A DNA stretch of 64,000 nt, taken from contig OZ024761.1 in assembly GCA_964016885.1 (NCBI GenBank), positions 3,844,001 to 3,908,000 on the forward strand, given 5' to 3'. The notes beneath the pieces are model-generated. The model was not told the origin of the DNA. It did not search any database and was given only the letters and a program-made list of their open reading frames with translations. The stretch's first letter is position 1; every line of letters begins with the position of its first letter. Made by a program: the position numbers and the translations under genes. Source of the DNA: Eledone cirrhosa (taxonomy: Eukaryota). Positions 31,919-64,000 of the stretch are shown here, piece after piece.

Positions 31919-34718
31919 CATCCTACTTTTAATTTAATATAAATGCTTGGATTTACTACTTGGAATTTTTTAGCATATTCTACAGGTGGTAAGGCACATG
32001 ATTCTGATATTCTCATCATTGTTTAACATCCATCTTCCACACTTGGACGGTTTTGTTCCATTTGAGGCCAGATTGGTCGGGAGACCGTGTTTTCTATGGT
32101 TGGATGCCCTTCCTAACACCAACCACATTTACAGTGTGGACTGGGAGCCTTTTTACAATGTCTCCTACACGACCACCTTACAGTGTAGACAGGGTGCCTT
32201 TTTAACGTGTCTCCTACACGACCACCTTACAGTGTAGACTGGGTGCTTTTTGCCGTGTCACCGACATAGTGGACAGAAATGGGAGGATGGGGTAGGGTGT
32301 GTGGGGTGTATATTGGGTTAAGAGGTACCTACTGACTGTAGGTTTAAATTTGTATGCAAGAGAAGGCGGGTCTTCTGTATAACTGCATAGCACCAAAGAT
32401 CTCAATCCAGTGTCATTGTCTTAGAGAGGAGTAAGTGAGCAAAGTCAGTTTTTATCACCTCGTCCCAGGTTTTTCTTGGTCTACCCACTCTGTAGCTTCC
32501 ATCAATTTTGATCACTCTGCACTTTTTTATACAGCTGTTGTCCTTCATATGCATCACATGACCACACCAACGCAATTTCCTCTCCAGAACACAACATTTG
32601 ATACCTCTTATGCTTAGTCTCGCCCTCAATCTATAAATTTTCAGTTTATTTGTTTATTGTCAAAGCTCTTTCGTCACATACTGTGACCAATTTATTATTT
32701 TGAAGAGAGGGTGTTTTGCCAGAGAGGTATGGTGAGGGGGTGGTAGGTGAGAGGGAAAGAAGGCGGGTGTTGGGAGGGCAATAGGGAGAGAGCTGTTTTA
32801 CAGATGTGGGTGAGGGCAGCTTGGATCAGGGTTGAGGGATATCCACACTGGATGAAGCGGGAGGTCATTTGAAGGGATTGGGTCTCGAAATCATGGTCCT
32901 GGTTACAGAGCCGACGGTGAGTATTGTCAACAGAGAGAAGTCAAGAAATTGGACTGAAGAGTTGGAGACAGCAGGGGTGAAAGTGAGGGCAGGATGGAAA
33001 GACTGGACAAAAGAAAGAAAAGAATCGAGCTGTTCGTGGGAGAGAGAGGTAGCGTTGATACAATCATTGATGTAATGGCCGTATAGCTCAGGGGTCGGAC
33101 CAGTGTACTGGGTGAAGATGAGGGCCTCAATGTAGACAACGAACAAGTTGATGGAGTTACATTCTTGTACCCATGGTTACCCCAAATACCTGTTGGTAAA
33201 ACTCTCCGGAAAAGTTATTGAACACTCTGGGGGGTAGATATCTTGTCTTTAAAGCGTTGAAATATCCGAAACCCCCAGTAGACAACTGATGAGGACCCCC
33301 CCCCCCCCCCTACACCTCATTCTTGTTTTCTTTTTATTCTCATTCCATTTTTAAGCCTATATATATATATATAGGAAAATGTTCAAGACCCCGACGGCAG
33401 AGCTCAAGTTGTTTCGATGGCTATTACCCACTCTACTACCCTAAGTATTGAGTACTCTGGTGCGTTATGGTCCACCTGGTTTCTTACCACACTTCCTTTG
33501 TTATATATATATATCTATCTATCTATCTAAGGCGGGTAAAATTCCCGAGATCCATGGGCGAGTTCTCTCCAGCGGTCTCTGTCCCTCATTATCGATGCCA
33601 TGTCCTGCGTCTCCAACAGACCAGTGTCTGTCCTTAGGGCATCAACATACGTTAACCTTGGTCTTCCTCTTCTAGTGTGTCCATGTAGGGGCTCCCAAAG
33701 GAGCACTGAGTGCAATGTCAACTCTGGATGTCGGTGAGCATGTCCAGCTAACCTCAGTCTCCTCTGTGTCACTTCGTAGAGACCTGAAAATCCGCCTCTT
33801 CATTGCTGTAGTGGAGTCTGTGCTGCTGTATGGGTCTGAGACTTGGACACTGACCAAGAAACTCACTCAGATGGTGGATGGGTGCTACACGAGAATGCTG
33901 AGGATGGCTCTGAACATTAATCAGTATACACTGAGGATGAAGAACTCAGAGCTGTATGGGAGCATCCCAAAAGTCAGCTCAAAAGATATATATATATATA
34001 TATATCATCATCATCGTTTAACGTCCATCTTCCACCCTTGCATGGGTTTGGATGGGAGTTTTCCCACTTGAGGCAAGATTTGTTGTCCTGCTCGTATAGG
34101 ACTGTCTGCCGGGTTTTCTACGGCTGGGTGCCCTTCCCAACACCAACCACATTTACAGTGTGGACTGGGAGGTTTTTACCGTGTTACCTACACGGCCACA
34201 TTACAGCGTGGACTGTGTGTTTTTTTTGTCGTGACACCTACACAACCTCATTTGTTTCGGACTGGATGTTGTGGTACAAACATAATTTCACATTTAAGGG
34301 GGTAGTGTGGATGGGGTGGGGGTAGTGGTACGGAGGTGTATTTTTTTAGAGATGCCTACTGACTGTAGTAGGTTTCGCTTTGTACTTAGGCAAAGCGGGT
34401 CTTCTGTATGACTGTGTAGCGCCAAAGATCTCGGTCCAGTGACATTGTCTTGGAGAGGTGTAAGTGTGTGAGGTCGGAATTTATCAAGTCATCCCAGGTT
34501 TTTCTGGGTCTGCCTACTCCGTGGCTACCGTCTATTTTTATCGCCCTGCACTTTTTTATACAGCTGTCGTCTTTCATGCGCATCACGTGACCATACCAAC
34601 GTAGTCTTCTCTCGAGTAAACAACATCTGATCCGTCTTATTTCTAATTTCTCCCTTAGTACGTTTATGCTTTGCCGTTCACGTATATTACTATTATATTT
34701 ACATATACATATATATGT

Positions 34719-35399: not shown

Positions 35400-35544
35400 A
35401 GCCAATACATCTGTTTTCCATTCCAGGCCCATAAAAAGATGTACAAAGGTCAGAAGTGTCAAGCACATTCAGAGGAATTTCCTGATGGTATAACTAATGG
35501 CGCTGCATGGTATAGTTTAACAGGTCAGTACATCTCTCTCTCTC

Positions 35545-35607
<63 letters not shown>

Positions 35608-38600
35608 AGGGCGGGTAAAATTCCCGAGATCCATGGACGAGTTCTCTCCAGCGGTCTCTGTCCCTCATTATCGCTGCCATGTCCTGTGTCTCCAACAGAC
35701 CAGTGTCTGTCCTTAGGGCATCAACATACGTTAGTCTTGGTCTTCCTCTTCCAGTGTGTCCATGTAGAGGCTCCCACAGGAGCACTGAGTGCAATGTCAA
35801 CTCTGGATGTCGGTGAGCATGTCCAGCTAACCTCAGTCTCCTCTGTGTCACTTTTGACCTGACTTTTGGGAGGCTCCCATACAGCTCTGAGTTTTTCATC
35901 CTCAGTGTATACATGAACATATATATATATATATATATAGTGTTATATTTGGGGATGTTCGTTTTGCCAATAGAAAGAGACACATGTATCATATAATTTT
36001 CACTTTATCTTTATTATTCCTTACTCATTTGTTTATCAAAGTTCTTTTGTCACACATTCTGTGACCTCCTCAATGATTATCTGTTATGTGTCTCCTCTTT
36101 TTGCTGTTCCTAAACTTCCACTCTATCTTGTTTTGGTTTGTTTTGTGTCTGCATGCGTTTGTGGGTTTGTATGGTTGGCTGTTTTGCTGTTTGTGTCCAT
36201 ATATATATATTTATCATCATTGTTTAACACCCATTTTCCATGCTTGTCGAGAGATAAGTCTGGCCAGAATTGATCACACAGTACCTTGCTCCGATGGGAC
36301 TGTAAATTTGGCCACGGTTTTTACAGCTGGATGCCCTTCCTAACACCAACCACATTTACAATCTGGAACTGGATGGCACTGCTATGAGAGGAGGTACAGT
36401 TCAGTTGGTTGCACTGAAACCTTCACACAGTGGAACCCTAGTTTAGGAGCCCGGAACTGGTTGGCACTGCTATGGGGGTCTGGCCACGCCAAACCCTTTT
36501 CACAGCAGAACCATAGTTTGGGTGCCGAAACCACATTTACACTGTGGAAGTGGATGGCACTGTTATGAGGAGGGACAGGCCAGCTGGCTGTGCTGAACCC
36601 TTTTCACATCAGAACCATAGTTAATAGCATCTGGGACGGTAGGCTACACCCTAACTTCTCTTGTAAACCAAGTAATACAGAATGGTGTCAACTGTTACAA
36701 GGGTGATGGAGCTGCCCTAGGTCATGAAAGTTACAGAGTCATCGCACAACTGATTAGAGAACGTATACATCTAGACGAGATGCAGTTTGGATTTGTAGCA
36801 AGAAAAAGCACCAGCGATGCCCTATTCCTTGTGAAGCAAATGTAGAAGTACTTGGCTAAAAGCAAGCCACTCTACCTAGCATTCAGGTCATCGCTCCTGG
36901 GTGCCCTTCTGTTGATATTTTTAACCACAAGGATATCAGACTCTTGTTGCGTATATACAGGTGGAGTTTAAGATTGGAGCGGTCTAGTGTTTACCTGTGG
37001 GTGTCACATTAACCCATTGCCATTTACATTACTTTATATATACTATTGTATTTTCACAGTAAAGGCTTTACCTCACATAATATCTCACATAACATTTACA
37101 TTACTCTATATATACTATTGTATTTTCACAGTAAAGACTTTACCTCGCATAATATCTCACATAACATTTACATTACTCTATATATATACTATGGTATTTT
37201 CATGGTAAAAGCTTTACCTGACATAACATTGAATTTATGAGATTTTGATATTCATTTTGAGAACAATACCTTAACATCAGTATGAGTGGTCAGTTACGGC
37301 CGGTTTGAAATGAAAAAGGTGAGAGAATTTTGGCCGGATATAGCCAGTTTAAATGGGTTAAGACATATCTTATCACCTTTGTTAATTAAGACATATCTTA
37401 TCATCTTTGTTAATTGATACAGACATATCTTACCTTTGTTAATTAAGACACATCTTATCACCTTTGTTAATTAATACAGGTGGAATGCAGGACTGGAGCT
37501 ATCTCAATACAAACTGTTTTGGAATCACCATTGAGTTAAGTTGTGATAAATATCCAAACGCTTCAAAACTCCGAGATTATTGGGAAGACAATAAATACTC
37601 CTTGCTGGTATACATGGCTCAAGTAAGTACTCCTTGTTGGTATACATGGCTCAAGTAGGTACTCCTTGTTGGTATACATGGCTCAAGTAAGTACTCCTTG
37701 TTGGTATACATGGCTCAAGTAAGTACTCCTTGTTGGTATACATGGCTCAAGTAGGTACTCCTTGTTGGTATACATGGCTCAAGTAAGTACTCCTTGCTGG
37801 TATACATGGCTCAAGTAAGTACTCCTTGTTGGTATACATGGCTCAAGTAAGTACTCCTTGTTGGTATACATGGCTCAAGTAGGTACTCCTTGTTGGTATA
37901 CATGGCTCAAGTAAGTACTCCTTGCTGGTATACATGGCTCAAGTAAGTACTCCTTGTTGGTATACATGGCTCAAGTAGGTACTCCTTGTTGGTATACATG
38001 GCTCAAGTAGGTACTCCTTGTTGGTATACATGGCTCAAGTAGGTACTCCTTGTTGGTATACATGGCTCAAGTAAGTACTCCTTGCTGGTATACATGGCTC
38101 AAGTAAGTACTCCTTGTTGGTATACATGGCTCAAGTAGGTACTCCTTGTTGGTATACATGGCTCAAGTAGGTACTCCTTGTTGGTATACATGGCCCAAGT
38201 AAGTACTCCTTGCTGGTATACATGGCTCAAGTAAGTACTCCTTGTTGGTATACATGGCTCAAGTAGGTACTCCTTGCTGGTATACATGGCTCAAGTAAGT
38301 ACTCCTTGTTGGTATACATGGCTCAAGTAGGTACTCCTTGCTGGTATACATGGCTCAAGTAGGTACTCCTTGCTGGTATACATGGCTCAAGTAGGTACTC
38401 CTTGTTGGTATACATGGCTCAAGTAGGTACTCCTTGTTGGTATACATGGCTCAAGTAAGTACTCCTTGTTGGTATACATGGCTCAAGTAGGTACTCCTTG
38501 CTGGTATACATGGCTCAAGTAAGTACTCCTTGTTGGTATACATGGCTCAAGTAGGTACTCCTTGCTGGTATACATGGCTCAAGTAAGTACTCCTTGCTGG

Positions 38601-41223
38601 TATACATGGCTCAAGTAAGTAATCCTTGTTGGTATACATGGCTCAAGTAAGTACTCCTTGTTGGTATACATGGCTCAAGTAGGTACTCCTTGTTGGTATA
38701 CATGGCTCAAGTAGGTACTCCTTGTTGGTATACATGGCTCAAGTAAGTACTCCTTGTTGGTATACATGGCTCAAGTAGGTACTCCTTGCTGGTATACATG
38801 GCTCAAGTAGGTACTCCTTGCTGGTATACATGGCTCAAGTAGGTACTCCTTGTTGGTATACATGGCTCAAGTAGGTACTCCTTGTTGGTATACATGGCTC
38901 AAGTAAGTACTCCTTGCTGGTATACATGGCTCAAGTAGGTACTCCTTGCTGGTATACATGGCTCAAGTAGGTACTCCTTGTTGGTATACATGGCTCAAGT
39001 AGGTACTCCTTGTTGGTATACATGGCTCAAGTAAGTACTCCTTGTTGGTATACATGGCTCAAGTAAGTACTCCTTGTTGGTATACATGGCTCAAGTAGGT
39101 ACTCCTTGCTGGTATACATGGCTCAAGTAAGTACTCCTTGTTGGTATACATGGCTCAAGTAAGTACTCCTTGCTGGTATACATGGCTCAAGTAAGTACTC
39201 CTTGCTGGTATACATGGCTCAAGTAAGTAATCCTTGTTGGTATACATGGCTCAAGTAAGTACTCCTTGTTGGTATACATGGCTCAAGTAGGTACTCCTTG
39301 TTGGTATACATGGCTCAAGTAGGTACTCCTTGTTGGTATACATGGCTCAAGTAAGTACTCCTTGTTGGTATACATGGCTCAAGTAGGTACTCCTTGTTGG
39401 TATACATGGCTCAAGTAGGTACTCCTTGTTGGTATACATGGCTCAAGTAAGTACTCCTTGCTGGTATACATGGCTCAAGTAAGTAATCCTTGTTGGTATA
39501 CATGGCTCAAGTAAGTACTCCTTGTTGGTATACATGGCTCAAGTAGGTACTCCTTGTTGGTATACATGGCTCAAGTAAGTACTCCTTGTTGGTATACATG
39601 GCTCAAGTAAGTACTCCTTGTTGGTATACATGGCTCAAGTAGGTACTCTTTGTTGGTATACATGGCTCAAGTAAGTACTCCTTGCTGGTATACATGGCTC
39701 AAGTAAGTACTCCTTGCTGGTATACATGGCTCAAGTAAGTACTCCTTGTTGGTATACATGGCTCAAGTAGGTACTCCTTGTTGGTATACATGGCTCAAGT
39801 AAGTACTCCTTGTTGGTATACATGGTTCAAGTAAGTACTCCTTGCTGGTATACATGGCTCAAGTAAGTACTCCTTGTTGGTATACATGGCTCAAGTAGGT
39901 ACTCGTTTCTTGTGTGTTTGTAAAGGGAGTGTATATGTGTGCATGTGTGTGTGTGTGTTTGTAAAGGGAGTATATATGTGTGTATGTGTGTGTCGATCTA
40001 CAAACTACAGCCATCACTCACAATCGAGTATAACGTGGTAGTATGTTTTATGCTTTCACTAAGGGTTTTAGGTTCCCATGCTAGCAGATACCTCCTTCCT
40101 CTCTTGATCCAGCGGAACATCTGGAATGTGATAACTGGGAGGGGAAAGAGGAGGTTGCACCAATATTGGACTGGAACTGTCTTTATTGACCCTCAAAAGG
40201 ATGAAACAGAAATTGGACTTTGGCAGGATTTGAACTCAGAATGTAGAGATAAGGAACAAATATTCAGCACTCTAATAACTCTGCTGAATCGATTGCTTAA
40301 TGTATATCATCATCATCATCGTCCATCTTCCACGGTAGCATGGGTTAGACGGTTTTGTTCCATTTGATGCAGGAATGGTTGGGAGACCGTGTCTCGCTCA
40401 TACGGAAGCGTCTCTGGCAGGTTTTCTATGGTTGGATGCCCTTCCTAACACCAACCACATTTATAGTGTGGACTGTTGTGTATATATGACAAATGGAGAG
40501 ATGCTGTGCTGAAAAGGACCCATCCCACCCTTGCAAGCAAGGAAAAGCGGACGTAAAATGATTTTGATGATGGTGATGATTATATGGGTTGGCTAGAGTA
40601 GCCCTGTGTGTATACAGGACTAACACCAGTCTTGTTAGTGGTGTAGTGGGGTGGCGTGAGAACCCCCTCAACCATCATCAAACTATCACACAACCCTTTT
40701 CTCTTTCATTTACATAGAACTTCAACCCAAGGAAATAACAACTGGCAAGGTACAAAATTCAGGACTGCCACTTTCAATGTTGGGACCCTGAAAGGGTGAA
40801 ATAGTGGAGCTGCTAGAGAGGAGAGAAGTCGATATATACAGGAGGTGAGATGGAAGGGGGGGGGGGGGGGGGGGTGCCTCAGCAAGACTACTGCAGAGAT
40901 ATAAGCTTTACTGAATAGGAAATAATGATAGGGTAGGTGATGTAGGCACCTTACTAGCTGAGAAATGGATAGAGAAGGTGATAGAAGTACTTAGAGTAAG
41001 AATTATCAAGCTTAGAATAGCTGTAGGAAATAGAGTGGTGACAATTATGCTGAATCTCCCTGAGAATTACATTTCACCATACACATGCAGAATCTCCCAT
41101 CAATTGAAGAATGGATGGAATTTAGAATAACTAATTTCTATATTACATGTTTTGTTTTCTTCTCATATATAAGGGCCACTTTCACCCCCAGGCAATGCTG
41201 GGTACCTCTGGTCGCATGCATAC

Positions 41224-41256
<33 letters not shown>

Positions 41257-44200
41257 TATTCTATCTCTATTTATCTACATCTATCTACACACACACATAT
41301 ATATATTCATACATACATGTGGTCTCACTCTCTCACTCTCTCTCTCTTACTCTCTCTCACTCTCTCACTCTTTCTCTCTCTCTCTCTGTATATATATATA
41401 TATATATATGGAGGTACATGGCTTAGTGGTTAGAGCATTGGGCTTGCAATCGCAATGTTGCGAGTTCAATTCTCGGACTGGGTGATGTGTTGTTTTCTTT
41501 GAGCAAGACACTTTATTTTATATTGCTCCAGTTTACTCAGCTGTAGAAATGAGATCATTCCACTGTAAAGTGGTCGTGTAGGCGCCACGGAAAAAAGCAC
41601 CCAGCACTCACTGTAAATGAGGTTGGTGTTAGGAAGGGCATCCAGCTGTAGAAGTCAAGCCAGAATCGGTTCCCATCCCACCCTTGCAAGCAGGGAAAAG
41701 TGGACGTAAAATGAAATGATGATGATATATATATATATATATATATATGTATATCATCATCATCATTTTACATCTGCTTTTCCCTGCTTGCAAGGGTGGG
41801 ATGGGTCCTCTTCAGCACAGCATCTCTCCATTTGTCATCTCCTCCATGTGCTTTAGCAATTTGAGGCCAGCTCTCACCACCTCTACTGGGTTTTCTTGGC
41901 ACTTCTTCACCCAGCGGTCATCCTCAATACGCATCACATGTCCATACAAACGCAGTTTTCTCTCCCGCACACTACAACTTATCCCTCTTATACACAGTTT
42001 CTCTCTCAACTCATCCAAGCTTGGTCGTTCACGCACATTGACATTGCAGATCCAACAGAGCATGCTTGCTTCATTTCTCTCCAGCCGTCACATACCCTCC
42101 GCAGTTGCTGCCCATGTCTCACTACCATAGAGCATCGCGCATCTCACACAGGCATCATATAACCAGCCTTTCATTTGTAGGGAGAAACCCTACGTTGTCA
42201 ACAGAAGAAGCAGCTCTCTAAACTTCTTCCATCCTGTCCTTATTCTAGATACTATGGCCTCGGAGCACCCTCCTCCCTTGCTAATCTGATCACCTAGGTA
42301 TTGGAAGCTATCAACCACCTCTATAGATCCTACTTGCATTTGAAAAATGTGCCTATCACTGACACTTCTACTATCAATTTTCCCTGAACATCTACTACAT
42401 ATGGAGTTTTCCCTACCTGTTAGTTTGCCTGCTATCCCACTACATTTCTTGTGTACCCAAGATCTGCATTGTGTACATTTTATAGAATTTATGCCAACTC
42501 CTTTCCTACTTATTGAACATAGCCATTTCCCTGAGTTTTGTCCTCTTTGCTACTCCTCAACACTTTTGTTTTAGCTAGGTTCACTCTCAGTCCTCTTGAT
42601 TCCAACTGCTGTTTCCATAACCAGAATTTATTCTCTAGCTCCTCTACTGATTCTGCTATAAGAACCAGATCGTCAGCATAGAGAAGTTCCCATGGACAGC
42701 CAGTCTTAAACTCCTCTGTTATGGCTTGGAGGACTATAATGAATAAGAGTGGGCTGAGGACCGAACCTTGATGAACTTCTACTTGTATCTGGAATTCCTC
42801 ACTAAACTCCATTCCTACTCTGACTTTACTGACAGTACCCCTGTACATAGCTTGCACAGTCCTCACAAACCATTCCTCAACACTTAGTTTCCTTAGGGAC
42901 TACCAAATGACAGATCAGGGTACCCTATCAAAGGCCTTCTCTAGGTCAACAAAAGCTAAGTATAGTGGCTTATTTTTCTCTAAGAACCTCTCTTCTAGTT
43001 GTCTCACTAAGAAGAGGGCATCTGTTGTACTTTCCCCAGGCACAAAACACAAACATCTCATCTAATTTGACCCTTTCTCTAATTGGTTGTGCTAATATCC
43101 TTTCTACCACTTTCATAACCTGATCCATCAGTTTTTATACCCCTATAATTGCTCCTCTCCAGAGCATCCCCTTTACCTTTGTAGCAATTTATGAGAATAC
43201 TGCTGCACCAGTCTTTGGGTATGACACCGCCATATATAGCCTGATTGACTATGCGTGCAACCAGCTTAGTACCTACTTCTCCTGATGCCTTCAGCATCTC
43301 AGCAACTATCCCCGACGATCCAGCTGCCTTACCACTTTTCATTTCTTTAATTGCTTCTTTGACCCTATAAGTCATCAACCTCAATAGCTGGTCCCTCTGT
43401 TGGGACTACTGGGGATAATTTCTCTCTCTCCCATTCGTTCTCCACATTCATCAGTCTCTCATAATGACATTTCCTGACCTCTTTTTCCTGAGCATCAGTG
43501 AGACTAAGTACACTGGCATCATTTCGGACACACTTATCTCCAACAACATCCTGATTTACACTGACACACTGCCTTGCAATGCGGAACAACTACATTATAT
43601 ATATAATCAGAATTAAAAGAGGGAAAATCAAGTAACACTCATTAAATAAGTTTATTCCCTTACAACTGTTTCAAGTGCCAAATTTTCAGAGTAGTAATTC
43701 AAAATCAAACGGCCGGAATCTGACCGTTTAACCAGAATTTGCCCACACATATATTTGTACAACTTTGTCAGAACAAATAAACGTACTTTAATAAGATTGT
43801 CAGCTTAAAATAAACTTACATCAAGCATTTAAGAACAACCCCTTTCACAGATAATACAAATGCTGAAATGGAGAGTAAGGATTTTCATCTTGTAATTTAT
43901 GGAGAGACATGTCTGACGCCATCTTGGAAAAATTTCAAAATTATATTATTATTTAAAGGGAGATAATAAACCAAGGTAAGATAATTTGTACGAATAAAGT
44001 ACAGAAATTAAAACAGAGGAGATTGGATCATCATCATCATCGTTTAACGTCCATCTTCCACGCTAGCATGGGTTAGACGGGAATTGTCCCATTTGAGGCA
44101 AGATTGGTCGAGTGACCGTGTCTCACTCGTATAGGACTACCTGGCAGGTTTTCTATGGCTGGATGCCCTTCCTAACACCAACCACATTTACAGTGTGGAC

Positions 44201-46663
44201 TGAGAGCCTTTTTACTGTGTCTCCTACACAACCACTTTACAGTGTGAACTGGGTGCTTTTTGTCATGTTTCCTACATGACCACTTTACAGTGTGGACTAG
44301 GAACCTTTTTACCATGTCCCCTACATGACCACTTTACAGTAGTGGGTTGGGTGTATGTTTGGTTTGGAGGGGCCTACTGACTAGGTTAACTTTGCACATC
44401 AAAATTGATTGTTAAGGAGTACCTATACATTATTTAAGTATAACTAATCCTTATGTCAAAACAAAAATAGCCTTGTTAAGTAGAATTAATAATTATTTCT
44501 ACTTTAGGTACAAGGCCAGCAATTACCCAGTGCATTACTGGTACTTTATTTTATTGACCCTGTAAGGATGAAAGGCAAAGTTAACCTCAGTGCGAGTTGA
44601 ACACAGACTGTAAAGAGACGTAACTCTGTGCTGGAAAGCATTGCGTCAGACCCTCTACTGATACTGCCAATCCACCGCCCTAGAATTAATAATTGTTTCT
44701 ACCTTTGGTACAAGGCCAGCAATTACCCAGTGCATTACTGGTACTTTATTTTATCGACCCCGTAAGGATGAAAGGCAAAGTTAACCTCGGCGGGATTTGA
44801 ACTCAGACCATAAAGGGCCGTAACTCTTTTCTGCAAAGCATGGAGTCTAACCCTTTACCGATACTTCCAATGAGTTCTGGATGTATTAAGATGTTAAGAA
44901 CCTCCTTTCTATGTGGCCAAAGTCTGAATGATTCCTTTTGTAGAATATGGCACCTCTTAACCAAAAATATACCCCCAACCCACTACCCCTACCCCCACCC
45001 CCATCTACACCACCCCTTCCTCTGTAAAGTTATGTTGGTACCACAACATCCAGTCCAAACTAAAGAGGTTGTGTAGGTGTCACAACAAAAAAATACACAG
45101 TCCACGCTGTAATGTGGCCGTGTAGGTAACACGGTAAAAAGCTCCCAGTCCACACTGTAAACGTGGTTGGTGTTAGGAAGGGCATCCAGCCATAGAAAAC
45201 CTGCCAGATAGTCCTATACGAGTGAGACACGGTCTCCCGACCAATCTTGCCTCATGTAGGACAATTCCCATCTAAACCCATGCTAGCGGAGAAGAGAGAC
45301 ATTAAATGATGATGATGAATTCTGTATGTCTACTTTATTAATTAAAACGCAATCACATATATAAGAGAATAGTGTATATGTATAATTTAATGGTTTACAT
45401 GTATAATCTAATGGTTTATATGTATAATTTAATGGCTTACATGTATAATTTAACGGTTTATATGTATAATTTAATGGCTTACATGTATAATTTAATGTTT
45501 TATATGTAACTAGCAGAGGTACCCGGCGTTGCTCGGGTATTAAATACCAGTTATGTATACCATTTATGTCAATACTTCAGTGCTGCTTCGAAAACTATAC
45601 TTTTACAAAATCATCGGCTTTTTCCAAAAGAGGGTTCCTGCCCTCAGGGGTCCCCTACTCAATATGTGCCAATTCTGAGAGTTCACATTCATCTGTAGAA
45701 CAAACGTAGCCCACGTGTCAAGTTTTGTGAAAATCGGTTGTGAACTCCAAAAGTTATGACGTTTTGTTGCATTGCACTGCAGTGCTTCAGTCGACTCCAA
45801 GGAAGTGGTTAAAGTGGTTAAAGGGGTTATCTGCCGGGAGGCCCTATAATCAATATCTGGAAAAATGAAAGTGCCCATGACCATCCGGAGTACATAAGTA
45901 ACCTATGTCTAAAGTTTGGTGAAAATACTGTAGAAATGCATAAGGTTTACACACACACGCGCGTGTATGTATTTGTGTGTGTGTATGTATTTGTGTGTGC
46001 GCATGTATGTGTATGTCCGTCGGCGCATACGTATGTACTGGCCTAAATCTTCACTATTTACTTTTACTATTTTAAGGCAAAGTTAAAATCCCGTCGAGCT
46101 TAACTTTGCCTTTCATCCTTACGGGGTCGATAAAATAAAGTACCAGTAATGTACTGGGTAATTGCTGGCCTTGTGCCAAAAGTAGAAACAATTATTTTAA
46201 TAACCTCTGTCATTTTCGTTTACAATTTTATTTACATCATTCTTAAACTCCGGGGCTGGAAATCATTCTGTTATTTTAAATTGTTAAATAGAATATTAGT
46301 CTAACAACTCCATTTACACCATAAACTTGGTCTTGTCTTTGCATGAAATTGTTCTTCTCACTCCACATAACGACGTATTATCCTCGCTTTTTTTCTGTTC
46401 ATTACTAGGGAACGTCTTCACGAACCAACATATCGTCTTTCTGTTTTCCTTCGGTTGCAACGTTTCTCGAAATATTTAATTCTGCGTTCACAGATTGAAT
46501 TTATTAGTTTAAGAAGATCCCGTTAATGTTGAAAGCAGCGATTCTTTGCTTAAACTTTCTTTCTTTCTCAACTCCTCTCTCTCACTCACTCATACCCCCC
46601 TCTCTCTCTTCTTCCTACAGAATGGAGAACAATAAAGAACGCGCAGATCTCTTTCTCTCTCTT

Positions 46664-46696
<33 letters not shown>

Positions 46697-48037
46697 ACCA
46701 GCGTTCGTCGCCATTCTCTCTCTCTGTCTCTCTATCTGATTATCTTGTACCTCTCTCTGTATAACGACCTATCTCACTCTCTCTCTCTACATCTCCCTTT
46801 CTCTCTTTAGATGTATATGTGTGTGTGTCATATATATATATATAGAAAGAGAGAGTTGCAACATGTATGTAGTTTCATAGATTTTTGAGGGTATAAACAG
46901 AGCATATAAATAAAGTTACAGTAGAATAACATAACAAATATATTTTAAATATATACATAAACTACAATATTAAAGACCATGTAAAGGAAGGGGTGAACAA
47001 CGGAGCCAACACCAGAGCAAAGGTCAGCAACGTCGCGAGTACTGGGAAACCTCTCTAATTTTGAGGCAAGCCAGCACACTGGCAGCGTTGCCTCGGGTGA
47101 TGGCGAGGCTGATGCACTGAAATATTGTTTTAAAAGACTTTTTAATGGAAATGAAGCAAAATGGAAGCTTAATGTTGAAACTTCGAACTCATGAATTTTG
47201 CAGGTTAAAATTTCGCTGGCCCGGAAACTGTACGCGTATTTTGTTCGATAAACAAATGACGCCATAAAAGGGAAATAACTCGTCTCTCACCTTTATTTAT
47301 ACATTTGAACTGAAAAATAAATACATTACAAATTCGAATTTTGCACTTGGCGTGGGTCGATTTGAAAATTTTTTTGACCAATGTCTCTGCCAGACCTTCA
47401 TCTATAAATGTAGCAATTTCACCGAAATTTGAACGTATGGTTTAGGAGGAGATGTATGCCGACCGTTTTAGTAGACAGACAGACAGACAACCTCAGTTTT
47501 ATATATATAGATTTACAAGACATATGAGAGTAATGTAACAGATATGAAACTATAGCCACTAATATTTACATAAGAGTATAGTTAATGACCCTAACTTAGA
47601 CAATCCCCAGGGAACCCTTTGATTAAAATGGAATATATGTAAGAAACCAAATGGGCATGAGCCCAACACATGTGTCAAGTTTCATCAAGATTGGTTTGGT
47701 AGTTTTTAAGATTTAGGTTCACAAACAAACAGACAGAAATTGCCATTTATGTGTATAGATATATATGATAGATATATGTTTGTTGTATTGTAGGTCCATA
47801 AAGGTGTCCATGGTTTTGTCCAAGACAAAGCTACTGGTCAGTTCCTGTCTGATGTCCAGATAACAGTGTCTGGAATTGACCATGATGTTGTCACTGCTAA
47901 AGATGGAGACTATTGGAGACTTCTGCTACCCCATGACTATCAAATTACTGCTTCAAAATCTGGGTATCTTCTCTTCTTTCTAGCAATCTCTCTCAGTTTC
48001 TTTACATGTCTCTGTCTGTCTGTCTGTCTGTCAGCCA

Positions 48038-48419: not shown

Positions 48420-51400
48420 GTCAGTCAGTCTGTCTGTCTGTCTGTCTGTCTGCCAGTATGTCTGTCAGCCTGTCTGTCTGTCTGTCTGTCAGTCTGTCTC
48501 TCTGTCTGTCTGTCTGTCAGTCTGTCTCTCTCTCTGTCTCTCTCTCTCTCTCTCTCTGTCAGTCAGTCTGTCTCTCTCTCTGTCTGTCTGTCAGTGAGTC
48601 TGTCTCTCTGTCTGTCAGTCAGTTTGACTCTCTCTGTCTCTCTCTCTCTGTCTGTCTGTCAGTCTGTCTCTCTGTCTGTCTGTCTGTCAGTCTGTCTCTC
48701 TCTGTCTCTGTCTGTCTGTCTGTCTGCCAGCCAGTCTGTCTCTCTGCTTAGTGGGGTGGTCTACTGTTATCTTAATGCTCTGGTGGATGGAGTTAGCTAT
48801 TTGCTGCATCTTCTCCATGGTGCTAACTTCTAGTTCTGATTCATGGGGCAGTTTTAAAACACTTATATGTATACAGCTACATTGGAGTGAAAAACTTTAA
48901 TTCTATTTTCAGTCTAAGCCGGCCTGGCAGCTCCATATACAAATGAGGTTAATCAGCCCATGTACATAAAAACTATGTTTTTGCCTGTATCAGATTGCAA
49001 CAGAGAAGGGGAAGCATTATCTAACAGCCACAAGCCAGAAATGATAATTGATATTTATCGTCTGCTACCTTTGCTGGAATCCGCTAGATGGCGTTAGCTG
49101 TCAGCTTCCAAAATTCATAGCTAAAAGGCTTTCAAATGTTTATTCGTAAACATACTGTACATCATTAGATATACAAAATTCACATACTTATCATCATCAT
49201 CATCATCATTGTTTAGCTGATCAGACTTGAAGAGTTCTAGTCTCTTGTGATGAAATCTCTTTCTGAACTGCCTCAAAACCTCTACATAGTAGTGTTGACT
49301 ATCTGGCTGTGGGGGACCCAGTGGATGTAGATGATGCCCTTGCTGTCAAAGAATGAGATCGCCATGAGCTTCCCAGTGGAACTGCTTTACCTGGCTTTCT
49401 TCGGTCTTGGTGAGTCAGAATGTTTCCACTGGGCAAGGTTTCTCTCTAAAAATGAAAGGCAGATTGTATGATGCCTGTATACGAACAGCAATGTTACATG
49501 GCAGTAAGACATGGGCATTGTCTGCAGAGGACCTGCGCAGACTGGAAAGGAACGAAGCATGCATGCTCCGCTGGATGTGTAATAGTAATATACGTGAACG
49601 GCAAAGCATAAATGAACTAAGTGAGAAATTAGGAATAAGAGGAATCAGATGCCATTTACTCGAGAGAAGACTACGTTGGTATGGTCACGTGATGCGCATG
49701 AAAGACGACAAACTGTAGAAAAAAGTGCTGGGCGATCAAAATTGATGAAAATTACGGAATAGGTAGACCCAGAAAAACCTGGGACGATCTGATAAATTCC
49801 GACCTTACACACTTACACCTCTCCAAGACAATGTCACTGGACCGAGATCTTTGGCACTACGCAGTAATACAGAAGACTCGCCTTGCCTATGTACAAAGCG
49901 AAACCTACAGTCAGTAGGCACCTCTTAACCAAATATACACCCCAATCCACTACCCCTACCCTATCCTCCCACTCCCACCAACACCACCCTCTCTCTGTAA
50001 AGTTGGTACCACAACATCCAGTCCAAATAAATGAGATAATGAGATCGAGATTGTGTAGGTGTCACAACAAAATACACCCAGTCCACGCTGTAATGTGGCC
50101 GTGTAGGTGTCACAACAAAACACACCCAGTCCACACTGTAATGTGGCCGTGTAGGTGTCACAACAAAACACACACAGTCCACGCTGTAATGGGGCCGTGT
50201 AGGTGTCACAACAAAACACACAATCCACGCTGTAATGTGGCCATGTAGGTAACACGGTAAAAAGTTCCCAGTTCCACACTGTAAATGTGGTTGGTGTTAG
50301 GAAGGGCATCCAGCCATAGAAAACCTGCCAGATAGTCCTATACAAGCAAGACATGGTCACCCGACCAACCTTGCCTCAAATTGGGACAACTCCCGTCCAA
50401 CCCATGCTAGGGTGGAAGATGGACGTTAAACGATGATGATGGGCACTCTGTTTCTTGGTCTCTGGATCATAACAGTAGACCCAGCCCTCGTCACAGCTTA
50501 CTAAAAACTCAAGGACACTTGGATTCAAAGCAATCCACTCAACCATCTCCCTGCTGTCATCAACACACCTCTGCCTTTCATCTTCATTGAGCACCCTCGG
50601 AACAAACTTTGCGCATGTTCAGATTGTCATGAATGACTGTGCACAGAGCTCTCAGCCACTTCAAATCATTTAGCAAGTGTCAGAAGAGATGCATGATGGT
50701 CCTTGTTCAGAAATTTGCAAATTTTGTCGACCAACTGTGTCATCCTGATGTCTCTCTCCCTACTACACCTCTCATCATCCCTAACCTATTCCCTGATTCC
50801 CTGTCCTCCTAGAACAGCTTGTGCCAGCAGCAGAAATCTGTCGTCCAGCTCCTGAAAGTTACTCTGTCATCAGTTCTGACCATTTTATAGGGTTCTGCAG
50901 CATTTTTACCCAGCTTGACACAAACATTTATTGCATATCGAACCTCCAAGTTGTCATGTCCTGACTGTAGAACCAGTCAGCTGTGACAAAACGTGTTTGA
51001 CCCATAGTGTTTAAAGTGCTGTTGTGCCCCAAACCTTCAGACTGGATAAAAAGAAATTTGGCATGTAAACTTATAATAACCACATCAAAGATGTATTAGA
51101 TCAGGGGTGTGCAACATAATCCATTGGTGGGCCACTTTTGAACATTGGAACAACTATTAGGGCCATTAATATTTATTTGCAAGCAGGAATAAGCAGACGT
51201 AAAATGATGATGATGATGATATTCCAAAGATTCACCACAACTTCTTTCCATAACATGGAATAGGTCAACTGGGAAATTATAACACACATAACCCTATCAG
51301 TGAAGCCCTTTAGTATAGGTCAACTGGGAAACTATAACACACATATCCCTATCAGAGTGAAGCCCTTTAGTATAGGTCAACTGGGAAATTATAACACACA

Positions 51401-55539: not shown

Positions 55540-55609
55540 AATATACTCTTCTTTATATATAATCATCATGCTCATTTGACATCTGCTTTCCCTGCTAGTA
55601 TATATATAT

Positions 55610-55655
<46 letters not shown>

Positions 55656-61600: not shown

Positions 61601-62067
61601 AGACAGCAAAAAGGCTCCCAGTCCACAGTGTAAAGTGGTCGTATAGGAGACAGCAAAAAGGCTCCCAGTCCACAGTGTAAAGTGGTCGTGTAGGAGACAG
61701 CAAAAAGGCTCCCAGTCCACAGTGTAAAGTGGTCATGCAGGCGACAGCAAAAAAGCTCCCAGTCCACAGTGTAAAGTGGTCATGTAGGAGACAGCAAAAA
61801 GGCTCCCAGTCCACAGTGTAAAGTGGTCGTGCAGGTAAGACGGTAAAAAGGCTCCCAGTCCACAGTTTAAAGTGGTCGTGTAGGTAAGACGGTAAAAAGG
61901 CTCCCAGTCCACAGTGTAAATATGGTTGGTGTTAGGAAAGGCATCCAGCTGTAGAAAACCTGCCAGACAGTCCTCCCCGAGCGAGAAACGGTCACCCAAT
62001 CAATCTTGCCTCAAGTGGGACAATTCCCGTCTAACCCATGCTAGCGTAGAAGATAGACATTAAACGA

Positions 62068-62104
<37 letters not shown>

Positions 62105-63192
62105 TTATTATGTGTCTGTTCTATGTTTATGTATTTTTCTCTTCAATTTTCAGAGTAGAACCATTAAACATTTGTTGATGAAAATATTCAGCAGAAATCA
62201 TTTCAGTGAGGCTCTGAGTGTTGAAGCTGGCGGTAAAACTGTAGAGTGAGTGTTACTACTGCTTCTTACTCCTTCCTCCTTCCTTCTCATCCTCCTTCCC
62301 CCCCCCCCCCCCCTCCTCATCCTCCTCCTCCTACTACTACTACTACTACTACTTATCATCATCATTTACCACCTATTTTCCCTACAGACCAAGTCAGCCC
62401 TCAATCGGAGCTATTGTCCTCTCATCTTGTTTATTGCAGAGTGGACTGGGTGTCTTTATCATCTTGCCAACACTATCACCCACCTACCTACCTACCTACC
62501 CCTACCTACCTATCCACCTACCACTACCTACCCACCTACCTACCCATCCACCCACCCAACTACCTACCTACCCACCTACCTACACACCCACTTACCCACC
62601 TACCTACCTACCTAACCCATCTACCCACCCATCTACCCACCCACCTACCTACCCACCTAACTACCTACCTACCTACCTAACTCATCTACCCACCCATCTG
62701 CCCACCTACCTACCCACCTACCCACCTACCCACCTACCTACTTACCTACCTACCTACCTACCGACTTACCTACCTACCTAACTACCTGCCTACCTACCTG
62801 TCTGCCTACCAACCTACTTACCTACCTACCTACTTACCTACCTACCCACCTACCCACCTACCCACCTACCTACCTACATACCTACCTACCCACCCATCTA
62901 CCCACCTACCTACCTACCCACCTACCTACCTACCCTACCCTACCCCCTGCCTGTCCCATTACTCCAGTTAATTCACCAATGTAATTCTCTATTGTCCAGT
63001 CTACCATTGACCAGTACCACCCTAGCTAAGTACAGCGAGATGGAGCGCTCCCTCTTCCTCTTACTCACCAATGTCATCTCACACAATATTCCACACAACT
63101 ACACAGAGAAACGGTGTCAAGTGAAGGAATCGCACCTGAAACGGCCAGCCTCTGCTTTCAGCGATGTCTTTGATAACTATGGTACTTATACG
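5946..63192 (+). CDS. CPD: Carboxypeptidase D (M14 N/E subfamily, multidomain), partial spliced gene with 12 exons in window; both ends lie outside the window
   Basis: All 12 exons have AG/GT boundaries and join in frame (exon-end phases 2,2,1,1,0,1,0,2,1,0,2,0). Motifs: [49 protein letters not shown], two transthyretin-like GD(F/Y)WRLLLP repeats, and a degenerate downstream domain. Confidence 0.92.
7173..7623 (-). mobile_element. piggyBac-like MITE with ~4.5 copies of the 72-bp unit
   Basis: Same body as 25077-25285; ends TTTAAATGCTAAAGTG-TTAA; the other end is cut by a Helitron-type 5' terminus at 7172. Confidence 0.75.
7647..7745 (+). CDS. CPD: CPD exon b (99 bp): end of the transthyretin-like subdomain and linker
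   Basis: tttag|G TAT AAA...AGA AG|gtaag; [32 protein letters not shown]; phases match both neighbours. Confidence 0.8.
7775..8540. repeat. (CAC)n-rich low-complexity tracts
   Basis: Degenerate CAC/CCA repeats at 7775-7945 and 8100-8540. Confidence 0.9.
8600..9510 (-). mobile_element. Non-autonomous Helitron
   Basis: Minus-strand 5' end TCTATATATATAAAACTGAGGTTGTCTGTC; 3' hairpin plus CTAG; ~400 bp shared with 47115-47511. Confidence 0.78.
10062..10392. repeat. Foldback inverted repeat (~155-bp arms) with a hammerhead motif in each arm
   Basis: Arms are reverse complements around a ~17-nt loop. Confidence 0.9.
10290..10350 (+). ncRNA. Type I hammerhead ribozyme motif (mirror copy at ~10104-10161 on the - strand)
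   Basis: Stem I tattttat/atagaata; CTGATGA; stem II gtaccaaa/tttggtac; GAAA; short stem III; AUA cleavage triplet. Confidence 0.7.
10751..10784 (-). ncRNA. Minimal type I hammerhead ribozyme motif
   Basis: cttCTGATGAaGGACtagcGTCCGAAAcgTTaag. Confidence 0.7.
10893..12090 (-). mobile_element. RTE-clade LINE 3' half (family A): RT C-terminus, 3'UTR and (TGA)n tail
   Basis: [11 protein letters not shown]...FCYLGD...MLYGSETW...LRWYGHVMR...GRPKMTW. Confidence 0.9.
12290..15498 (+). mobile_element. Near full-length degraded RTE-clade LINE (endonuclease plus RT pseudogene)
   Basis: [26 protein letters not shown]; [27 protein letters not shown]; multiple stops and frameshifts; (GAT)n tail. Confidence 0.92.
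15652..15690 (-). ncRNA. Minimal type I hammerhead ribozyme motif
   Basis: agtcCTGATGAaGGGTaatgACCCaGAAActtgTTgatt. Confidence 0.7.
16820..18610 (-). mobile_element. Penelope-like element remnant (RT thumb plus GIY-YIG endonuclease) with ~130-bp inverted terminal repeats
   Basis: LALLDFRI...[25 protein letters not shown]; frameshifted [10 protein letters not shown]...[12 protein letters not shown]...[17 protein letters not shown]; 16820-16960 is the reverse complement of 18480-18610. Confidence 0.85.
19115..20819 (+). mobile_element. piggyBac-like MITE with ~21 tandem copies of a 72-bp unit
   Basis: TTAA-CCCTTTAGTATTTAAA...TGTAAATGGTAAATGG-TTAA; array at ~19253-20805. Confidence 0.85.
20850..21160 (+). 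CDS. CPD: CPD exon c (311 bp): linker and start of the active CP domain
   Basis: ttgcag|T...CCAG|gtgag; [13 protein letters not shown]...[28 protein letters not shown]. Confidence 0.93.
21666..22326. repeat. 55-bp tandem array, ~12 copies
   Basis: Unit atatctcactagtgaggtttcatgtcatacagggtgtttggagttaaagtactca. Confidence 0.95.
23190..23921. repeat. 89-bp tandem array, ~8 copies, with diverged copies upstream from ~22975
   Basis: Unit gaggccagctaaacctacataggtgtgagctgaactgggccctatc...caaccttgtag. Confidence 0.95.
23970..24161 (+). CDS. CPD: CPD exon d (192 bp): HxxE zinc-binding motif
   Basis: tgtag|GC...ACAG|gtctgt; [19 protein letters not shown]...[13 protein letters not shown]. Confidence 0.95.
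25073..25289 (-). mobile_element. piggyBac-like MITE, monomeric form (209 bp, no array)
   Basis: TTAA-CCCTTTACCATTTACA...TTTGAAAGCTAAAGAA-TTAA. Confidence 0.8.
25461..25636. mobile_element. Mariner-type MITE
   Basis: Imperfect ~32-bp TIRs caagggtcggctgaaaagttcatatgctgacc / ggtcagcctgtgaacttttcaacgaaccctca. Confidence 0.6.
26440..26723 (+). CDS. CPD: CPD exon e (284 bp): substrate-binding NR and third zinc ligand
   Basis: aacag|GA...TTC|gtatgt; [18 protein letters not shown]...[10 protein letters not shown]...[19 protein letters not shown]. Confidence 0.95.
27051..27089 (+). ncRNA. Minimal type I hammerhead ribozyme motif in a dispersed repeat (26935-27200, related in reverse to 15530-15790)
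   Basis: ggtgCTGACGAtAGCTaacaAGCTtGAAActagTAcatc; GUA triplet. Confidence 0.72.
27427..28037. repeat. Inverted repeat (~225-bp arms, ~160-bp spacer), Penelope pLTR-like; related partial copies at ~32625-32690 and 35940-36130
   Basis: Arms are reverse complements; each carries a hammerhead motif. Confidence 0.88.
27844..27886 (+). ncRNA. Minimal type I hammerhead ribozyme motif (mirror copy at 27577-27619 on the - strand)
   Basis: gtcaCTGAAGAgGTCACAgaatgTGTGACGAAAgaacTTtgac. Confidence 0.7.
28608..28859. repeat. Foldback inverted repeat (~120-bp arms); a single arm also occurs at ~16170-16285
   Basis: Arms are reverse complements; contain a collapsed CTGATGAttGAAA. Confidence 0.88.
29466..29638. 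repeat. Imperfect nested inverted repeat (Penelope-like remnant)
   Basis: aactactccattaccaaaggtt / aacctttggtaatggagtagtt; inner tctggatcgtt / aacgatccaga. Confidence 0.75.
30222..31874 (+). mobile_element. Helitron deletion derivative retaining a PIF1-helicase fragment
   Basis: A|TCTATATA 5' end; hairpin plus CTAG|T 3' end; 31089-31262 reads LPRMNL...[45 protein letters not shown]. Confidence 0.85.
32015..32630 (-). mobile_element. RTE family A 3' fragment; similar fragments at 25665-26100(-), 28230-28595(-), 34004-34695(-), 40305-40480(-), 44028-44400(-), 44945-45318(+)
   Basis: LRWCGHVM...[10 protein letters not shown] plus the shared 3'UTR. Confidence 0.85.
32865..33230 (-). pseudogene. 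Penelope-like reverse transcriptase fragment
   Basis: [12 protein letters not shown]...YINDC (degenerate YIDD)...FHPALTFT...VQFLD. Confidence 0.75.
33510..33985. mobile_element. RTE-like LINE (family C) 3' fragment with a 5' inversion; colinear copy at 35606-35910(-)
   Basis: 33527-33774 on - ([11 protein letters not shown]...) fused to 33775-33985 on + (...LLYGSETW...PKVSSK). Confidence 0.85.
34800..35196. repeat. Foldback inverted repeat (~190-bp arms) with hammerheads; a single arm also occurs at 54797-54983
   Basis: Arms are reverse complements; flanked by (TA)n. Confidence 0.9.
35091..35148 (+). ncRNA. Type I hammerhead motif with an extended stem II (copies at 34847-34904 and ~54845-54898 on the - strand)
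   Basis: atacCTGATGA-(bulged stem II)-GAAAtgttcaTAgtat; stem III ATG/CAT; AUA triplet. Confidence 0.62.
35427..35523 (+). CDS. CPD: CPD exon f (97 bp)
   Basis: ttccag|GCC...ACAG|gtcagt; [32 protein letters not shown]. Confidence 0.93.
37009..37360 (-). mobile_element. piggyBac-like MITE with ~3 copies of the 72-bp unit
   Basis: TTAA-CCCATTGCCATTTACA...TTTAAATGGG-TTAA. Confidence 0.78.
37480..37622 (+). CDS. CPD: CPD exon g (143 bp): catalytic Glu
   Basis: tacag|GT...CAA|gtaagt; [47 protein letters not shown]. Confidence 0.95.
37596..39904 (+). repeat. 32-bp minisatellite (~72 copies) made of the last 27 nt of exon g plus the splice donor
   Basis: Unit TACTCCTTGYTGGTATACATGGCTCAA|GTARG. 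Confidence 0.97.
41408..41725 (+). mobile_element. tRNA-derived SINE (family 2) with an RTE-LINE-derived tail; 5'-truncated copies at 9712-10065 and 29083-29378
   Basis: A box TGGCTTAGTGG, B box GAGTTCAATTC, core TGAGCAAGACACTTTATTT, tail GGTTGGTGTTAGGAAGGGCATCCAG plus (TGA)n shared with the RTE 3'UTR. Confidence 0.8.
41752..43590 (-). mobile_element. RTE-clade LINE RT fragment (degraded); an endonuclease fragment also occurs at ~40740-41050(+)
   Basis: [44 protein letters not shown]. Confidence 0.9.
45510..47511 (-). mobile_element. Mosaic non-autonomous Helitron
   Basis: Same termini as 8600-9510; internal 46410-46555 matches 6730-6880 in reverse. Confidence 0.75.
47794..47963 (+). CDS. 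CPD: CPD exon h (170 bp): transthyretin-like subdomain of the active domain
   Basis: tgtag|GTC...TCTGG|gtatct; [15 protein letters not shown]...[21 protein letters not shown]; same length and phases as exon a. Confidence 0.93.
48008..48745. repeat. (TCTG)n/(TC)n compound microsatellite
   Basis: Visible directly in the sequence. Confidence 0.95.
49430..50441 (+). mobile_element. RTE family A 3' fragment, very similar to 14625-15498
   Basis: [23 protein letters not shown]...; 3'UTR with extra 47/48-bp units; (GAT)n tail. Confidence 0.9.
50442..50960 (-). pseudogene. Mariner transposase remnant
   Basis: [17 protein letters not shown] (HTH) and [11 protein letters not shown]...[20 protein letters not shown] (first catalytic Asp region). 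Confidence 0.8.
51102..52692. mobile_element. Probable hAT (Charlie-like) MITE enclosing a 55-bp array
   Basis: Termini CAGGGGTGTGCAAC / GTTGCATGCCCTTG, subterminal GCGGGCC/GGCCCG motifs, diverged 8-bp flanks tattagat / gtttagag. Confidence 0.55.
51260..52557. repeat. 55-bp tandem array, ~23 copies
   Basis: Unit taggtcaactgggaaaYtataacacacataaccctatcagtgaagccctttagta. Confidence 0.95.
52809..53212 (+). CDS. CPD: CPD exon i (404 bp): linker and start of the degenerate CP-like domain
   Basis: tgtag|T...ATCG|gtaagt; [10 protein letters not shown]...VLNFTL...[28 protein letters not shown]. Confidence 0.88.
53220..53700. repeat. (GGT)n-rich tract
   Basis: Visible directly in the sequence. Confidence 0.9.
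54298..54366 (-). ncRNA. Type I hammerhead ribozyme motif
   Basis: Stem I gttttat/ataaaat; CTGATGA; AU-rich stem II; GAAAtgcgcaTA; AUA triplet. Confidence 0.68.
54429..54643. repeat. Near-perfect palindrome with a (TA)n centre
   Basis: ~75-bp unique arms plus self-complementary (TA)n. Confidence 0.9.
55651..56300 (-). mobile_element. RTE-clade LINE 3' fragment with an uninterrupted frame
   Basis: YRYLGD...MLHGSETW...LRWYGHVMR...GRGRPRKTW; (TGA)n tail. Confidence 0.9.
56407..56567 (+). CDS. CPD: CPD exon j (161 bp)
   Basis: gaaag|GT...AGG|gtaagt; [24 protein letters not shown], homologous to [14 protein letters not shown] in exon d. Confidence 0.85.
56653..57170. repeat. 96-bp tandem array, ~5.4 copies
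   Basis: Unit ctataaaacctcagtttaaaatatatggtatactct...gacttatacacaggac. Confidence 0.93.
57172..58345 (-). mobile_element. RTE 3' end with a 48-bp unit expanded ~17-fold
   Basis: Family A 3'UTR flanks; unit actttacagtgtggactgggtactttttgttgtgacacctacacaacc. Confidence 0.9.
58530..60190. repeat. 25-bp AT-rich minisatellite with interspersed 39-bp variants
   Basis: tagatttactgtatatatagttgta, switching to tacatttgctgtatatatagttgta near 59330. Confidence 0.95.
60190..62071 (+). mobile_element. RTE 3' end with a 47-bp unit expanded ~33-fold
   Basis: Family A 3'UTR flanks; unit cagtccacagtgtaaagtggtcgtatagSagacagcaaaaaggctcc. Confidence 0.9.
62154..62245 (+). CDS. CPD: CPD exon k (92 bp)
   Basis: tttcag|AGT...GTAGA|gtgagt; [30 protein letters not shown], a degenerate counterpart of [10 protein letters not shown]. 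Confidence 0.75.
62478..62948. repeat. (CCTA/CCCA)n microsatellite
   Basis: Visible directly in the sequence. Confidence 0.93.
63000..63192 (+). CDS. CPD: CPD exon l (193 bp)
   Basis: tccag|T...ACG|gtaggt; [22 protein letters not shown]...[14 protein letters not shown]; in phase with exon k. Confidence 0.75.
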
Positions 63193-64000
63193 GTAGGTCT
63201 TTGATAACTATGGTACTTATACGGTAGGTCTTTGATAACTATGGTACTTATACGGTAGGTCTTTGATAACTATGGTACTTATACAGTAGGTCTTTGATAA
63301 CTATGGTACTTATATGGTAGGTCTTTGATAACTATGGTTCTTATACGGTAGGTCTTTGATAACTATGGTACTTATACGGTAGGTCTTTGATAACTATGGT
63401 ACTTATACGGTAGGTCTTTGATAACTATGGTACTTATACGGTAGGTCTTTGATAACTATGGTACTTATATGGTAGGTCTTTGATAACTATGGTACTTATA
63501 CGGTAGGTCTTTGATAACTATGGTACTTATACGGTAGGTCCTTGATAACTATGGTACTTATACGGTAGGTCCTTGGTAACTATGGTACTTATACGGTAGG
63601 TCTTTGATAACTATGGTTCTTATACGGTAGGACCTTGATAACTATGGTACTTATACGGTAGGTCTTTGATAACTATGGTACTTATACGGTAGGTGTTTGG
63701 TAACTATGGTACTTATACGGTAGGTCTTTGATAACTATGGTACTTATACGGTAGGTCTTTGATAACTATGGTACTTATACGGTAGGTCCTTGATAACTAT
63801 GGTACTTATACGGTAGGTCCTTGATAACTATGGTACTTATACGGTAGGTCTTTGGTAACTATGGTACTTATACGGTAGGTCTTTGATAACTATGGTACTT
63901 ATACGGTAGGACCTTGATAACTATGGTACTTATACGGTAGGTCTTTGATAACTATGGTACTTATACGGTAGGTCTTTGATAACTATGGTACTTATACGGT
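63166..64000 (+). repeat. 31-bp minisatellite (at least 27 copies, runs off the window) made of the last 27 nt of exon l plus the splice donor
   Basis: Unit GTCTTTGATAACTATGGTACTTATACG|GTAG, followed by GT of the next unit. Confidence 0.96.

Follow-up and report, generated by a model that had tools for sequence, protein, structure and literature searches.

A minisatellite of 72 tandem splice donors at an exon/intron boundary of carboxypeptidase D in Eledone cirrhosa

Minisatellites that span an exon/intron boundary and reiterate its splice donor have been described in human and amphioxus genes. Human F7 intron 7 carries a 37-bp variable number tandem repeat (VNTR) of this kind (Borensztajn et al. 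2006, PMC1557585), and the available passages of the same article also mention donors reiterated by minisatellites in 6-16 (25 pseudo-sites), CBS intervening sequence (IVS) 13 (15-20 repeats), LMNB2 and PDGF. Amphioxus "mirage" minisatellites occur in Adh3, troponin C, the globins BflGb6/9 and PGBD5, with units of 10-160 bp, and are reported in the passages available not to disturb splicing (PMC3087553, PMC3902484). A related human case is the 25-bp VNTR of ABCA7 intron 18 (De Roeck et al. 2018, PMC5954066), for which excerpts of the article describe an isoform longer by one unit at about 2%, unchanged with array length, and a length-dependent skipping of the next exon. Donor-spanning arrays are not discussed in the passages of PMC10078293 that were available, and our literature search returned no cephalopod report of such an array and, among the papers listed, nothing relevant on octopus or cephalopod intronic minisatellites. 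Here, we describe an array of 72 donor copies in the carboxypeptidase D (CPD) gene of the cephalopod Eledone cirrhosa, within a stretch of 64,000 nucleotides (GenBank assembly GCA_964016885.1, contig OZ024761.1, positions 3,844,001 to 3,908,000; hereafter the window, with its first letter as position 1). The array is probably a near-neutral minisatellite passenger whose first unit spans the CPD donor, born by slippage at an exon/intron microhomology. The features on which the argument draws are as follows.

37596..39904, + strand: minisatellite of 72 units of 32 bp (27 exon nt plus GTARG) and a 5-nt TACTC stub, with the exon/intron junction inside unit 1
37480..37622, + strand: CPD exon of 143 nt, end of catalytic domain II (GMQDW...ITIELSC...YSLLVYMAQ), placed by homology and by a contig of public run X1 with 0 differences
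37620..37628, + strand: donor 1, CAA|GTAAGT, the sole donor seen in use
37656..37658, + strand: in-frame TAG in unit 2, which closes the frame for donors 3-72
37623..47793, + strand: host intron, 10.2 kb, phase 0, placed by homology
47794..47963, + strand: next exon, with which the CarboxypepD_reg subdomain begins (VHKG...); placed by homology and by the X1 contig, which connects it to donor 1
35427..35523, + strand: previous exon, which the X1 contig connects to 37480

The array belongs to the published class of donor-spanning minisatellites (F7 IVS7 type, or amphioxus mirage): it is a tandem array, its first unit contains the real boundary, its downstream donors are intact, and its most upstream donor is the one in the main mRNA. 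The 72 units run head to tail over 37596-39899 and are followed by the 5-bp stub; donor GTs stand at 37623+32n, the last at 39895, with a gap of exactly 32 bp in all 71 intervals. The repeat shows 96% matches, and the unit pattern matched the window 72 times, always within the array, compared with 0 matches in each of 100 shuffles. Each unit consists of the final 27 nt of exon 37480-37622, encoding YSLLVYMAQ, plus GTARG, and homology, an open 772-aa model and a spliced contig all place the authentic boundary (37622|37623) in the first unit. Six of the 32 unit positions vary, namely donor +4 (A in 39 units, G in 33), position -18 (37605 in unit 1; T in 50 units, C in 22; a synonymous change when read in the frame of the exon) and four further sites with rare variants. 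The GT is intact in 72/72 units, and the 9-mer CAA|GTAAGT of donor 1 recurs unchanged in 39 of the 72 donors. The TACTC stub at the array end is identical to the unit start, and stretching this homology leftwards gives 8 matches over 9 letters. All four combinations of the two common variants are present, and units 33, 52 and 60 share one of the rare variants. The common C/T at -18 is synonymous, and the donor remains valid with either letter at +4. These two variants could go back to old alleles that unequal exchange has mixed, although chance may also account for them. These results bear out a preliminary description, made from the letters of the DNA, which had proposed a unit of the last 27 coding nucleotides plus GTARG in about 72 copies, variation mainly at donor +4 and at one C/T site, a GT preserved in the copies, and a terminal TACTC.

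By its domain order, the host gene is carboxypeptidase D (family M14B), with tandem Peptidase_M14 and CarboxypepD_reg units collinear with named CPD. The array exon aligns with the end of Pfam Peptidase_M14 and with duck CPD domain II (1h8l, chain positions 252-297), and the glutamate of its ELSC motif is presumably the catalytic base. Among 13 named homologues, the highest identity of this exon was to Octopus bimaculoides carboxypeptidase D (85% over 47 aa). Using the latter protein, we mapped 12 exons in the window; spliced via donor 1, they give 772 codons without a stop, a model that is 70.4% identical over 777 columns to O. bimaculoides CPD residues 375-1142 (P0004), in keeping with an octopod source, and represents part of CPD, the N- and C-termini falling outside the window. 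The domain layout follows the available passages of PMC11266112. The host intron is probably much older than the array, because a homologous intron interrupts the domain-I repeat of CPD (acceptor 5945|5946; VHIG at 5946 corresponds to VHKG at 47794). We also considered whether the intron itself arose when an AG/GT proto-splice site was duplicated in tandem, in which case the last unit would supply the acceptor. This was rejected, given the domain-I intron and an acceptor in use 7.9 kb past the array.

To assess donor use, we turned to public runs: the gene was found in four of the seven listed, all from one study and none recorded as RNA, and runs X1, X2, X5 and X6 were compared over 37300-37675, a span that reaches as far as the third unit. 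X1 was treated as transcript-derived solely because its contig joins three exons. This contig (3,257 nt, depth 12) covers 37476-37624 with 0 differences, and its loose ends were located in the window at 35490, in the previous exon, and at 47796, in the next. Since the loose ends match the flanking exons, the contig is a spliced molecule that used donor 1 and acceptor 47794, the junction to 47794 being read from the letters of the loose ends rather than from a joint row. Depth in X1 is flat at 12 across the exon and 0 over 37625-37675 (units 2-3). No downstream-donor or intron-retaining contig was found in X1 over 37300-37675 among the rows listed, where contigs drop rare forms. Thus, in one contig of one run at depth 12, the main mRNA uses the most upstream donor, and minor use of other donors is possible. 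Acceptor 47794, the partner named in the preliminary description, is confirmed by homology and by the spliced contig, and the expectation of a spliceosome bound to choose the first donor in the row agrees with X1, where donor 1 to 47794 is the only junction seen. The two restriction-site-associated DNA (RAD) runs, X5 and X6, had depth in 5 of the 29 bins; every one of these falls on a dispersed repeat at 37300-37364, and depth was 0 on the exon or array.

Joining each of the 72 donors to acceptor 47794 in silico gave an open frame from donor 1 alone, as had been predicted. Donor 2 shifts the frame, so that translation would read 70 nt of the next exon before a stop, while the 70 donors from 3 to 72 run into the TAG at 37656-37658; hence all 71 downstream donors give a premature stop. 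These stops all lie upstream of further exon junctions, and nonsense-mediated decay (NMD) is therefore the probable fate of downstream-donor products. Any such product would stop short of the domain-II regulatory subdomain and have neither domain III nor the anchor. Moreover, the flanking exons are 143 and 170 nt long, and skipping either one shifts the frame.

The preliminary description had allowed for the array being an artefact of assembly, that is, missing or far shorter in the animal. In its favour, the array length given here is that of the assembly. Against it, units differ at defined sites, and in X2, a DNA-like run, the contig of the unique 5' flank (depth 2.96) ends at 37625, where a repeat graph should branch. 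Furthermore, the three X2 array contigs listed have depths of 73.5, 37.7 and 32, where 64.2, 31.8 and 26.6 would be predicted if the units were as numerous as in the assembly; contigs were matched to unit classes by mismatch count, and X2 may be the assembly's own sample. The ratio of observed to predicted depth (1.14-1.20) corresponds to roughly 70-85 copies, a crude figure, as contig depth is not strictly copy number and X2 depth does not resolve alleles. This agreement makes an artefact very unlikely.

No sign of function was found for the array. Conservation of the GT is at chance level, since with 6 of 32 sites variable the probability that G and T are both spared is 0.66, and selection on GT was accordingly rejected. 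The string of variants has no detectable higher-order structure (the longest repeated run, 7, was reached or passed in 226 of 1,000 shuffles). Special folds were also lacking: none of five RNA and four DNA folds beat shuffles (z from -0.53 to +1.04 in 9/9), so that a hairpin masking the downstream donors or driving slippage was set aside. Computed pairing to the U1 5' end was -7.0 kcal/mol for A-type and -6.7 kcal/mol for G-type donors, which places the array donors in mid-range for this gene, whose 12 donors run from -3.8 to -11.4. Because 39 of the 72 donors equal donor 1 over 9 nt, the choice among them must be made by position and not by strength.

The sole spliced transcript seen uses donor 1 and discards the other 71 copies with the intron, and it is for this reason that we favour a passenger. 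Its birth would have involved misalignment, through slippage or unequal exchange, between the exonic TACTC and a TACTC just past the donor, copying 32 bp across the donor and leaving the upstream exon and its donor untouched. Such a microhomology seed had been suggested in the preliminary description, and the sequence fits it in the stub and its leftward extension. Growth and shuffling may have followed by slippage or unequal exchange, as the four variant combinations and the rare variant common to units 33, 52 and 60 suggest. The first donor would then owe its choice to its position, whether exon definition or a first-come commitment during transcription is at work, as experiments showed for human F7, and any leak to donors 2-72 would meet a premature stop and NMD. 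Survivorship may contribute, in that donor-seeded arrays would be tolerated with exon and donor intact, while exon-internal seeds would break the frame. An occasional donor-spanning array is to be expected, given that about 20% of the window is minisatellite.

The same gene contains a second donor array, and several other repeats lie close to its exons:

63166..64000, + strand: second donor array, with 31-bp units (27 exon nt plus GTAG) in 27 or more copies, running off the window end
63000..63192, + strand: CPD domain-III exon that seeds the second array, placed by homology
37358..37479, + strand: short 28/57-bp repeat that runs up to the exon 37480 acceptor, with an acceptor copy 57 nt upstream (AG at 37421-37422)
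7163-7506, 19246-20807, 23190-23921, 37358-37478 and 56653-57172: minisatellites 2-141 bp from CPD exons

The second array also has exactly 27 exonic nt per unit, taken from the end of the domain-III exon; its GT is intact in 27/27 units, its donors are mostly ACG|GTAGGT, and a stop lies in the fourth codon past its own donor 1, such that downstream donors would include an immediate stop. A protein search with its exon gave none of 11 candidates at E <= 0.001, and use of its first donor is therefore suggested by homology only. Exon 37480-37622 is flanked by repeats on both sides, and X1 depth is nil on the upstream repeat with the duplicated acceptor. From 112 repeat rows, we chose 14 arrays (period at least 20, at least 4 copies), which cover 12,836 of 64,000 bp (20%). 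With seeds placed uniformly, 0.19 donor-spanning seeds would be expected (P = 0.16 for at least one, P = 0.013 for at least two). For the 12 arrays other than the two donor arrays, the median distance to an exon was 243 bp, compared with 1,308 bp under the null (P = 0.0005), a null that is naive in that it ignores the transposon fill of intron middles, draws on one gene, includes five arrays from two dispersed families and uses post hoc thresholds. Among the repeats of the window, a dispersed 72-bp satellite family occurs on both strands (7163-7506, 19246-20807, 37021-37226, and also near 2500, 4500 and 25000), and its long stop-free frame at 19228-20871 (minus strand, 547 aa) is a mere repeat translation. 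Arrays of 47-49 bp at 50053-50250, 57331-58209 and 60352-61920 have grown from a dispersed interspersed element with a dozen or more copies in the window. Fragments at 55595-56350 (minus strand), 41812-43589, 49368-49718, 33527-33799 and 35606-36004 have translations that resemble the reverse-transcriptase end of long interspersed nuclear elements (LINEs).

Several points weigh against a passive origin and neutral fate. The transcript evidence comes from one run of unrecorded type at depth 12, with contigs that drop rare forms; leaky products would be hidden by NMD; and the ancestral allele was not seen. Two amplified donors out of 12 exceed the uniform null (P = 0.013 unconditioned, or about 0.16 for one more given the first), and, once the two donor arrays are left out, 5 of the remaining 12 are found no more than 150 bp from an exon (P about 0.002). 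Seeding is possibly non-uniform for the latter reason. That exon edges are hot spots of minisatellite birth in this cephalopod genome, and not merely tolerated sites, nonetheless appears quite unlikely to us. If true, such hot spots would point to transcription- or splicing-linked slippage that repeatedly makes donor arrays, some tuning dose by length, and clustering at exon edges is the only lead able to raise the significance of this locus. We treat it as a lead and not a result, based on two of 12 donors amplified (27 exonic nt each), one duplicated acceptor and the five arrays near exons. Finally, neutrality is not guaranteed, because in minisatellite-bearing 6-16 and CBS the two donors after the first are used as well (PMC1557585), and in ABCA7 both expression and exon skipping vary with the length of the array (PMC5954066), as far as the available passages of these articles describe them.

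These human cases are precedents for the idea that the array modifies splicing according to its length: donor 1 would dominate, and length would alter the leak to donors 2-3 or the skipping of a flanking exon, setting CPD dose through NMD. In favour of such a modifier, all 71 downstream donors lead to a premature stop and both flanking exons shift the frame if skipped. In ABCA7, a longer VNTR goes with lower expression and with skipping of exon 19, although second-donor use there stays at about 2% independent of length (PMC5954066, available passages). CBS and 6-16 do employ two further donors; in F7 constructs, however, downstream sites failed to compete even at a consensus value of 91 (PMC1557585, available passages). 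No such junction appears in X1, nor, among the rows listed, does any contig with a downstream donor or the retained intron that would speak for the copy-number rheostat put forward in the preliminary description, although contigs lose rare forms. No length variation was seen either, X5 and X6 having no depth at the locus. We regard a length-dependent modifier as unlikely.

A selected device, whether one that yields a soluble CPD without its anchor or one that titrates the U1 small nuclear ribonucleoprotein (snRNP), is very improbable. The array does offer 72 sites pairing with U1 at -6.7 to -7.0 kcal/mol, but these are middling among the gene's 12 donors and carry no sign of selection on GT, so the earlier suggestion of a U1 sponge is left with nothing in its support. 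U1 is present at about a million copies per mammalian cell, so that 72 intronic sites, short-lived and confined to a single gene of modest coverage, would be negligible. As for a soluble product, short CPD forms without a transmembrane segment are described in insects, but these have one CP domain and not the same cut (bioRxiv 10.64898/2026.08.05.742955, available passages), and a literature search for short Aplysia CPD forms returned no paper. Here the protein would be cut immediately ahead of the domain-II CarboxypepD_reg subdomain and would gain an out-of-frame tail, and the stops lie upstream of several more junctions. A purposeful truncated CPD, as proposed initially, is thus unsupported, and in the published class, judging by the passages available, the first donor dominates (PMC1557585, PMC3087553). 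The near-neutral passenger is the reading that we retain.

The locus has modest value, as a mollusc in which the choice of the first donor can be tested in a natural setting. The letter at -18 is C in donor 1 and T in donors 2-6, which makes these separable in a single junction read and any leak easy to count. Donor-spanning arrays can also mislead spliced aligners and gene models.

Set beside the described systems, in so far as the available passages describe them, the CPD array most resembles F7: in both, unit 1 spans the boundary, identical donors stand in tandem and only the first is used. F7 differs in having 5-9 copies and 4 exonic nt, as opposed to 72 copies and 27 exonic nt, and in that its length polymorphism and scanning mechanism were demonstrated experimentally (PMC1557585). 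LMNB2 and PDGF use the authentic donor only, like the CPD array, while the use of the next two donors in 6-16 and CBS has no counterpart here at low depth (PMC1557585). ABCA7 is alike in that the array begins at the donor and that second-donor use leads to a frameshift and a premature stop; its unit, however, starts at the GT without exon sequence, where the CPD unit holds 27 exon nt, and the correlation of length with expression and next-exon skipping is a feature of ABCA7 (PMC5954066). The amphioxus mirages, in turn, come from an invertebrate, as in this case, and are likewise exon/intron boundaries duplicated in tandem, with several in the same gene or genome. The CPD array has a mollusc host and more copies than the globin mirages (3-6 in BflGb6), and haplotype and somatic length instability has been demonstrated for the mirages (PMC3087553). 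What is new here is a second donor array in the same gene, together with other arrays close to exons. The CPD array is otherwise one more case, here in a mollusc, of a class published for humans and amphioxus.

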